A stretch of 42,376 nt of DNA from the IMG/VR virus record IMGVR_UViG_2778261452_000001. The stretch is one strand, 5' to 3'. This document shows, one piece after another, positions 15,901 through 16,239 of this stretch (position 1 is the first letter of the stretch; every line of letters begins with the position of its first letter). The notes beneath the pieces are model-generated. The model had not been told where the DNA came from. It worked only from the letters and a program-made list of their open reading frames with translations, and made no database searches. Source of the DNA: a virus. Taxonomy: Duplodnaviria; Heunggongvirae; Uroviricota; Caudoviricetes. The translations under genes and the position numbers were made by a program.

Positions 15901-15920
15901 GATCACTTGATCATTTGATC
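15901..15920. promoter_or_regulatory. cluster of three Dam GATC sites in cre upstream region
   Basis: GATC at 15901, 15909, 15917 read directly; consistent with methylation-sensitive cre promoter region described for P1. Confidence 0.6.
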
Positions 15921-15926
15921 AAGGTT

Positions 15927-15985
15927 GCGCTACGTAAAATCTGCGAAATGTTGGCGGTGTTAGTCCTACAGATTTCGCGTAGCGC
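15927..15985. other. interrupted stem-loop (8 bp + 7 bp stems) between loxP and cre
   Basis: GCGCTACG/CGTAGCGC and AAATCTG/CAGATTT pair as reverse complements around a ~29-nt loop; read directly. Confidence 0.4.
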
Positions 15986-16017
15986 ACTTAGCACCACCAA
16001 TCAATCAGAGGTGAAAA

Positions 16018-16239
16018 ATGGGATATTCAGCTGCTAAAGTGTCCACTCATCTTGAGCTTGAGAAAAACCGTGGTTACTGGCGGGCAAAAGGGTTTGAGCG
16101 TGATAGTTACCAACTGTCATTATCTCGCGGTGAAGAGAAAATAGAACGCACGCGCGGTCGCTGGCGTTTCTATGACGAGAACCATAAACAGGTAAAGGCA
16201 GAGCCGATCCTGTACACTTTACTTAAAACCATTATCTGA
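16018..16239 (+). CDS. hypothetical basic protein upstream of cre
   Basis: 73-aa ORF, ATG with GAGGTG SD 5 nt upstream, ends 8 nt before cre ATG; I do not recall a P1 gene here. Confidence 0.4.
   Translation: MGYSAAKVSTHLELEKNRGYWRAKGFERDSYQLSLSRGEEKIERTRGRWRFYDENHKQVKAEPILYTLLKTII

Follow-up and report, generated by a model that had tools for sequence, protein, structure and literature searches.

The window analysed here, a stretch of 42,376 nucleotides from the IMG/VR virus record IMGVR_UViG_2778261452_000001, carries a lox site, a regulatory leader and two rightward genes, cra (16018-16239) and cre (16247-17278, 343 aa). A 601-bp query (15700-16300), with lox, cra and cre under the match, is 97-98% identical to the phages P1, P7, phiW39 and SJ46, a search of a plasmid collection returned 712 matching records, and the 471 bp from lox to the start of cre (15790-16260) are 100% identical to NZ_CP057563.1, an IncY plasmid of Escherichia fergusonii. 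From the phage identity and the plasmid-record matches taken together, the stretch is therefore assigned to a P1/P7-type phage-plasmid. To the left of loxP are C1, Coi and the C1 operators, and to its right is cre. In the comparison with the P1 loxP-cre interval that the first-pass annotation had suggested, a P1 (AF234172) position plus 15811 gives the position in the window, and the order lox, Dam sites, cra, cre is that of AF234172 and X03453. The region is most probably the regulatory leader and first gene of a cra-cre operon of the P1/P7 type, made up of cra, the Dam sites of promoter pR1 and the known leader. The records of P1 and P7 already cover both leader and cra, and their recovery here is the re-discovery of ordinary biology; the sole undescribed piece is a conserved inverted repeat between the Dam sites and cra.

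Reading rightwards, the leader opens with the C1 operator Oc1e, also named Op99e (ATTGCTCTAATAATTCT, 15735-15751, plus strand), which coincides position for position with AF234172 94724-94740 and bears the remark in that record that it 'may control expression of cra and cre'. Promoter P4cre (15751-15780, plus strand), annotated in AF234172, reads rightward across lox from a -35 of TTGATT (15751-15756) and a -10 of TAAACT (15775-15780) held 18 nt apart. The operator is conserved in all divergent lineages, and the P4cre hexamers are conserved in 6 lineages with a diverging spacer, which is the usual signature of a working promoter. The loxP site (15795-15828) is exact over its 34 bp, with perfect 13-nt arms around the 8-bp spacer GCATACAT, and is annotated in X03453. 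Beyond it stand the first Dam site (GATC, 15848-15851), annotated in both P1 and P7, and a LexA box of the form CTGT-N8-ACAG (15857-15876, core 15859-15874, CTGTAAATCCATACAG), also annotated in P1 and P7, which is among the best-conserved blocks of the leader and is overlapped by the leftward promoter P2coi (15852-15879, minus strand). Three TGATCA hexamers in an 8-bp register follow (15900-15921), and then the inverted repeat. The motif CCAATCAATCA (15997-16007, plus strand) stands directly 5' of the Shine-Dalgarno sequence GAGGTG of cra (16008-16013, plus strand), a ribosome-binding site annotated in X03453. Two further rightward promoters lie within cra, P2cre or pR2 (16094-16123) and, at the 3' end of the gene, P1cre or pR3 (16211-16235), both placed by position from AF234172 (283-312 and 400-424). 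In the alignment of lineages the conserved blocks of the leader are lox, a GATC, the LexA box, the hexamer array, the two arms of the repeat, CCAATCAATCA and the Shine-Dalgarno sequence. The stretch CCAATCA is invariant in 7 lineages, with GCAATCAATCA in its place in the very divergent L120, and CCAATCAATCA occurs as three exact copies in the whole plasmid of about 96 kb, all of them in leaders.

The promoter next to the hexamers, pR1 or P3cre (15915-15940, plus strand; AF234172 104-129, X03453 155-180), is annotated with a -35, TTGATC (15915-15920), that falls on the third hexamer, and with TAAAAT (15935-15940) as its -10. Its geometry is non-canonical, with a spacer of 14 nt, or of 22 nt if an alternative -35 is used, a sigma-70 consensus scan did not detect it, and its -10 reads TGAATT or TGAATA, with no A at position 2, in L004, L097 and L120. 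The hexamers place GATCs at 15901, 15909 and 15917, the three sites within about 20 bp that had been noticed in the first pass, with a fourth at 15848. They correspond to Dam sites 2-4 of P7, whose record (AF503408) annotates Dam sites at 37, 90, 98 and 106, equal to 15848, 15901, 15909 and 15917 of the window; positions 98 and 106 of P1 likewise equal 15909 and 15917, and the P1 record lists three Dam sites in all because its first hexamer is TGACCA. By position, then, the cluster is the annotated Dam-site set at the -35 of pR1, labelled in the P1 and P7 GenBank records as 'Dam methylation sites within the regulatory region of cre', and the suggestion that it fits the reported methylation-sensitive cre promoter is borne out by those records, which annotate the Dam sites and the P3cre -35 at this place.

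The inverted repeat immediately follows. Its left arm (TGCGCTACGTAAAATCTG, 15926-15943) contains the -10 of pR1, its right arm (CAGATTTCGCGTAGCGCA, 15969-15986) was delimited by an inverted-repeat search and the lineage alignment, and the 25 bp between them (15944-15968), in which pR1 transcription presumably starts, are unconstrained in sequence and invariant in length. The arms are complementary at 16 of 18 positions, and not one of 40 shuffles produced an inverted repeat as good as this with a loop of 3-40 nt. Eight lineages were compared, namely the window and its P1 type, L004, L007, L010, L095, L097, L100 and L120, and across them identity to the window is 65-100% in the left arm and 76-94% in the right arm, against 4-28% in the spacer, which is the level of random sequence. 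The distance from GCTACG to CGYRGC is nonetheless 55 nt in all eight, and a pattern open to any span from 41 to 66 nt had 114 matches in IMG/VR, all 114 of them with this same span. The flanks of the dyad, by contrast, contain indels, so that 7-9 nt separate it from the GATC cluster and 12-17 nt from CCAATCA. No further copy of the arm motif with up to 2 mismatches was found in the window or in the plasmid of about 96 kb, as expected of a dedicated or autoregulatory operator. The dyad is not a feature of the P1 or P7 GenBank records, and its sequence was unmatched in the literature searched, a set outside which the texts of Sternberg 1986 and the P1 genome paper fall.

A two-part stem-loop had been proposed here at 15927-15985; the inverted repeat is real, at 15926-15943 and 15969-15986, and selection for base pairing between its arms finds no support. 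As RNA the dyad folds at -25.7 kcal/mol (z = -2.76), but the other palindromes of the leader, namely lox, the LexA box and TGATCA, are DNA-level sites and yet fold equally well. Every measure of covariation between the arms lies at the mean of the shuffled control (score 0.075 against 0.075 and 0.089 against 0.090, for 16 variants and 8 lineages), with 242 of 500 and 272 of 500 shuffles scoring at least as high as observed. The sole pair that is variable on both sides, pair 15/49, takes the combinations A-T, A·A, T-A and T·T. By hand count the transition-type mismatches in the arms are 10 A·C and 6 G·U, and since A·C is not the rarer of the two there is no RNA-strand signature in the dyad. The arms thus appear, on these comparisons, to behave as independently conserved copies of GCGCTACG-YR-AAWTCTG and not as partners held complementary to each other.

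The alternative that survives best is that the repeat is an RNA hairpin in the long 5' UTR of P4cre transcripts, where it could act as a stabiliser, as a processing site for RNase III or RNase E, as a pause site or as an attenuator before the Shine-Dalgarno sequence of cra; P4cre transcripts would then carry the full hairpin and pR1 transcripts its right arm only. This reading stays alive because transcripts from P4cre, itself conserved together with its C1 operator, would span both arms, because the hairpin is the minimum-free-energy fold in 8 of 8 lineages (z -2.3 to -5.9) within a 244-nt leader that as a whole reaches z = -4.9, and because a second leader on the same plasmid repeats the layout of hairpin, CCAATCAATCA and Shine-Dalgarno sequence, which hints at a design at the RNA level. 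We nevertheless consider it unlikely. Covariation at the level of the shuffled control, all four combinations at the one variable W:W pair and A·C mismatches at least as common as G·U all speak against it, as does the conservation of both arms as sequence despite saturated synonymous sites nearby. Furthermore, a loop that is invariant in length and random in sequence is not something that a purely structural hairpin needs. The stem is followed by ACTTAGCACC with no run of T and hence is not an intrinsic terminator, none being found on either strand. The best Rfam match had E = 0.66, far below gathering, and the models hit were eukaryotic and archaeal snoRNAs and miRNAs, so that no known RNA family is matched. 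The presumed 5' UTR of pR1 transcripts shows no significant fold and no sequestration of the Shine-Dalgarno sequence (z = -0.75).

We tentatively favour, at a little under an even chance, an operator-like DNA dyad that brackets the start of pR1. What is found at the locus is what such a site should look like: two inverted copies of a conserved motif, fixed spacing and overlap with a promoter. The dyad would consist of two inverted copies of GCGCTACG-YR-AAWTCTG measuring 55 bp from outer edge to outer edge, the left copy over the -10 of pR1 and the right copy some 20-40 bp downstream of the presumed start. The start is expected in the spacer, and the pR1 mRNA is expected to lack the left arm, from the annotated position of the -10; given the 14-nt promoter spacer and the -10s without an A at position 2 in L004, L097 and L120, this placement depends on the annotation of 1986. 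A protein bound to the dyad as a dimer or tetramer would gate pR1 and could also block read-through from P4cre, and the most economical candidate for the putative binder is Cra, the small basic product of the operon itself. Against a DNA dyad stand the same three observations that keep the hairpin alive, namely that the repeat folds as RNA in every lineage, that the conserved P4cre would transcribe all of it and that a second leader of the plasmid has the hairpin layout.

Known DNA-binding proteins were also considered for the arms. Cre matches lox (CTTCGTATA) at 7 of 9 positions in the left arm (CTACGTAAA) and at 5 of 13 over the half-site in the right arm; in this hand alignment the match was judged to be chance because the two most variable arm positions fall inside it and the right arm is weak. 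A CRP site at -41.5 was rejected by hand inspection, there being at most one good half-site per lineage, with the wrong spacing, and by eye the arms match no consensus for IHF, ArgR, C1 or DnaA.

Adenine methylation of the GATCs reportedly lowers the activity of pR1, an effect that goes back to the 1986 paper and to GenBank notes, so that synthesis of Cra and Cre would rise when the GATCs are un- or hemimethylated. Three GATCs fall within 20 bp in 15.7% of the dinucleotide shuffles made from the window, and the cluster is for that reason unremarkable alone; what gives it weight is that 7 of 8 lineages keep it in place. Among 82 P1-type loci the cluster holds three GATCs in 77 and two in 5, and in the other lineages two or three GATCs occupy the same place in the same 8-bp register, with the exception of L095/L096. 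In these, two hexamer units read TGAGCG, the register is kept and no GATC is left, and single units that have decayed within a kept register (TGAACA, TAATCA, TGACCA) are seen in other loci. It is conceivable, by analogy with the TGATCA/G hexamers at which pacase acts in pac, that the three hexamers form an iteron-like array for a sequence-specific protein, and that Dam methylation would modulate the binding of that protein and not RNA polymerase directly. The register held through the decay of single units in most lineages, the two TGAGCG units of L095/L096, the variation between two and three units among P1-type loci and the similar GATC cluster of pac in the same window all agree with such an array. 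However, the concerted change of hexamer is confined to one lineage, the GenBank annotation and the 1986 title ascribe the effect to methylation of the promoter, triples of this density are not rare by chance and the protein itself is hypothetical, and we hold the array to be improbable.

Still less probable is a toggle in which the two arms would be face-to-face promoters, each with a -10-like hexamer on its own strand and occupied by polymerase in a mutually exclusive manner, directing transcription either rightward into cra-cre or leftward toward lox and coi. Coliphage 186 has convergent promoters of similar geometry, and on the minus strand the right arm does read TAAAAT in L010 and TAAATT in L097. 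In most lineages, though, this hexamer lacks the A at position 2 and reads CGAAAT or TGAAAT, a -35 at a fixed distance is lacking because the right flank varies from 12 to 45 nt, and a consensus scan gave no match.

The candidate binder of the dyad is encoded by the 73-codon ORF noted in the first pass, present as described with an ATG start and the GAGGTG Shine-Dalgarno sequence; its stop ends at 16239 and the ATG of cre begins at 16247, so that the gap is 7 nt and not the 8 nt first given. The first-pass annotation knew of no gene between loxP and cre in P1 and considered the ORF either unannotated or spurious, but it is the annotated ORF1, cra or upf0.2. It appears in X03453 (1986) as 'pot. 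ORF1 (aa 1-73)', in AF234172 as cra with the label 'putative cre associated function' and in P7 as upf0.2; the presence of cra between loxP and cre is noted in a paper of 2008, and a CRISPRi screen of 2023 found cra non-essential for plaque formation, its knock-down giving no plaque phenotype. The predicted basic protein belongs to phrog_804 (E = 4.4e-34, 71 of 72 profile positions) and is 96% identical to Cra of P1, with 3 residues differing from P1 and 4 from P7, and it had no match in Pfam, NCBIfam, PADLOC or the PDB. Two AlphaFold models (pLDDT 74 and 60) differ from each other in the N-terminus, and structure searches with them returned nothing informative and no candidate binding fold. 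Homologues with 59-69% identity were found on contigs whose lengths range from about 27 to 165 kb and whose source names are Klebsiella, Salmonella, Cronobacter and Enterobacteriaceae.

Against the homologues in L004, L007 and L010, pN of cra is 0.21-0.25 and pS 0.76-0.82, the latter at saturated synonymous sites, and third codon positions hold 40-46 of about 75 differences. The 73-codon frame is intact in 82 of 82 P1-type loci retrieved, which comprise 18 protein variants. Because the frame is kept and purifying selection is evident in relatives whose synonymous sites are saturated, cra is not spurious; on this substitution pattern it is a genuine, conserved protein-coding gene under strong purifying selection. 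It is hardly credible that the ORF is untranslated and owes its conservation to the embedded pR2 and pR3 and to the ribosome-binding region of cre, even though both promoters are annotated within it, CTGTACACT at pR3 near its 3' end is invariant down to its synonymous sites (with a -10-like hexamer in all lineages), its knock-down is without phenotype and a few database entries (P0010, P0012, P0017 and P0019) carry frameshifted copies, since third-position changes dominate and pN lies far below saturated pS over the entire ORF, the protein is conserved where the nucleotides of pR2 are not conserved across divergent lineages, the frame is intact throughout the P1-type loci, a strong Shine-Dalgarno sequence precedes it and remote homologues exist in unrelated contexts without cre.

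These remote members, 32-41% identical and recovered by a profile search of 1.8 billion representatives, have in common E[IL]EK..GYWRAKGF and a hydrophobic C-terminus. In L106 the remote homologue is followed 8 nt on by a tyrosine recombinase, and in L103-L105 and L108-L111 there is no recombinase; the sequence of L107 ends just past the gene and was not counted for this link. Other members are divergent from umuDC, stand among unrelated genes or lie at the end of an operon adjoining a Rep3 replication gene. As remote members also occur in contexts without a recombinase, the link between Cra and a recombinase is not universal. Closer to P1 the arrangement is strict, the distance from the stop of cra to the ATG of cre being 7 nt in 75 of 75 P1-type loci and also in the divergent loci checked, a check outside which L095 and L120 fall. 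This constant gap is at least compatible with translational coupling of cra and cre.

Upstream of cra the operon is far more variable. In every lineage other than that of P1 the same leader and Shine-Dalgarno sequence are followed not by cra but by a 356-aa gene (phrog_7674), whose stop overlaps the start of cra as ATGA. A 68-aa gene (phrog_19934) precedes it in some lineages, and in L120 genes of 188, 352 and 143 aa precede the cra-like and cre-like genes. P1 and P7 have none of these genes. P1 carries the shortest version of an operon that in every other lineage has extra, uncharacterised genes between leader and cra. Parsimony suggests that the 356-aa gene was lost in the P1/P7 lineage, a loss that would have placed cra directly under the Shine-Dalgarno sequence of the leader. 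Homologues of the 356-aa protein are also found elsewhere without cra; the 356-aa and 68-aa proteins matched only PHROGs without assigned function, and the 356-aa protein had no match in the PDB.

Cre-lox is among the most used tools of genetics. What this locus adds is in part a correction, in that the ORF suspected of being unannotated turns out to be cra, and the GATC cluster to be the Dam-sensitive promoter already known, and in part a modest addition, a conserved dyad of fixed geometry over pR1 that seems to behave like a DNA site rather than an RNA stem. The residual novelty, as a comparative observation, lies in this fixed-span dyad at pR1 and in the variable cargo between leader and cra. 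A more far-reaching model, which we offer as a speculation with a rather low probability, is that the 55-bp dyad, perhaps together with the hexamer array, is the operator of an unrecognised lox-proximal autoregulator, likeliest Cra, and that the leader is a platform for cargo. If this were true, the level of Cre would be set by three inputs, C1 acting at P4cre, Dam methylation at pR1 and feedback by Cra, and different cargo genes (of 356, 68, 188 and 143 aa) would have been inserted behind the same leader, itself acting as an expression platform, or lost from it.

The closest known system is P1 itself (X03453, Sternberg et al. 1986; AF234172), which has the identical order of lox, Dam site, LexA box, Dam sites, pR1, cra and cre. 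P1 differs in the TGACCA of its first hexamer, which leaves it with two clustered GATCs only, and in several substitutions in the spacer of the dyad. P7 (AF503408) has the same four Dam sites and LexA box, so that the window is P7-like in its Dam sites, and differs in calling the gene upf0.2. Divergent phage-plasmids from Klebsiella, Salmonella and Cronobacter assemblies and from other samples (L004, L007, L010, L095, L097-L102 and L120) have the same leader, in the order Oc1e/P4cre, lox, GATC, LexA box, hexamers, 55-bp dyad, CCAATCAATCA and Shine-Dalgarno sequence, with cra and then cre further on; they differ in that the leader drives the 356-aa gene, with or without the 68-aa gene, or, in L120, the 188-, 352- and 143-aa genes. 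Among better-known regulatory regions, the Dam-sensitive promoter pIN of the IS10 transposase has a GATC in a promoter hexamer, and agn43 has GATC triplets inside the site of its repressor OxyR. In both, as here, GATC overlaps a promoter or operator, so that expression depends on the state of methylation and can thereby be linked to replication. The present leader differs from them in having three phased TGATCA units in the -35 region and a non-canonical 14-nt spacer. Finally, looping repressors of the gal and deo type use two distant operator half-sites that bracket the start of transcription. Although the two sites of the dyad are only about 40 bp apart from centre to centre and looping is hypothetical here, they likewise form an inverted pair of constant spacing, in which one site covers the -10 and the other lies downstream of the start.

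The 3' end (window 16211-16239) of cra, the 73-aa open reading frame between loxP and cre (16018-16239), carries CTGTACACT, which is invariant at the homologous positions in the related loci L004-L100, synonymous sites included. Just 5' of the cra stop a -10-like hexamer is kept across the window and the same loci, as CATTAT, GATAAT, TATAAT, TACAAT and others. Judged from sequence, this pattern is consistent with conservation of pR3 as a cre promoter that would be embedded within cra; the annotated pR2 region, unlike that of pR3, is not conserved. Cra homologues of 71-73 aa (P0002, P0007, P0023 and others, including plasmid records such as NZ_CP116983.1) are named 'creatininase' by NCBI, which is implausible because the protein is this small and no family model matches, and the gene symbol cra seems to have been wrongly expanded, an error since propagated across RefSeq.

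In every P1-like lineage but P1/P7, a 356-aa gene separates the lox leader from cra, with which it overlaps translationally (L004-L010, L095-L102, L114-L117 and L120; for example, L004 1434-2504). This gene belongs to phrog_7674, of unknown function, and its product gave no match to Pfam, NCBIfam, PADLOC or PDB. Homologues 45-58% identical to the protein are encoded on further viral contigs that lack cra, and some of the P1-like lineages additionally carry a 68-aa gene (phrog_19934). The L004 lineage (L004-L006), whose Cra is P0023, with the NCBI name 'MULTISPECIES: Enterobacteriaceae', has ~500 additional bases in the interval that separates coi from the C1 operators. Within these, the minus strand of L004 768-891 gives a marginal 124-nt tRNA match (Rfam RF00005; 31 bits, gathering score 29), and ARAGORN predicts no tRNA there.

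The hexamer array is altered in the metagenome contigs L095/L096 (85-110), where TGAGCG-AT-TGAGCG replaces TGATCA units with the 8-bp register kept, leaving no GATC between lox and the dyad. The identical change in two units hints at recognition of the hexamers by a protein and not by Dam alone.

Downstream of the dyad lies the leader motif CCAATCAATCA (window 15997-16007), of which one strand of the ~96-kb IncY plasmid NZ_CP057563.1 carries exactly three copies, against ~0.05 expected. The second copy is at window 17694-17704, with no start codon nearby, and the third lies outside the window at 73491 of the plasmid, on the minus strand. All three are found in an intergenic leader, with a hairpin upstream and an SD-like sequence (GAGGTG, AAGGAG or CAGGAG) immediately downstream; for the third, the hairpin is CATGCCGC..GCGGCATG, a C1 operator/promoter also lies upstream, and a 246-aa gene follows. 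The motif was not found in a leader context in the literature searched.

Apart from the dyad, only one inverted repeat in the window reaches 16/18 or better; it lies at ~15115-15160, where the bivalent C1 operator Oc1ab and promoter Pc1 are located, upstream of c1. Eight GATC sites fall within 185 bp at 11734-11918, in two groups of four (11734-11771 and 11864-11918), a cluster that probably represents the pac site of P1 and its methylation-dependent hexamers.
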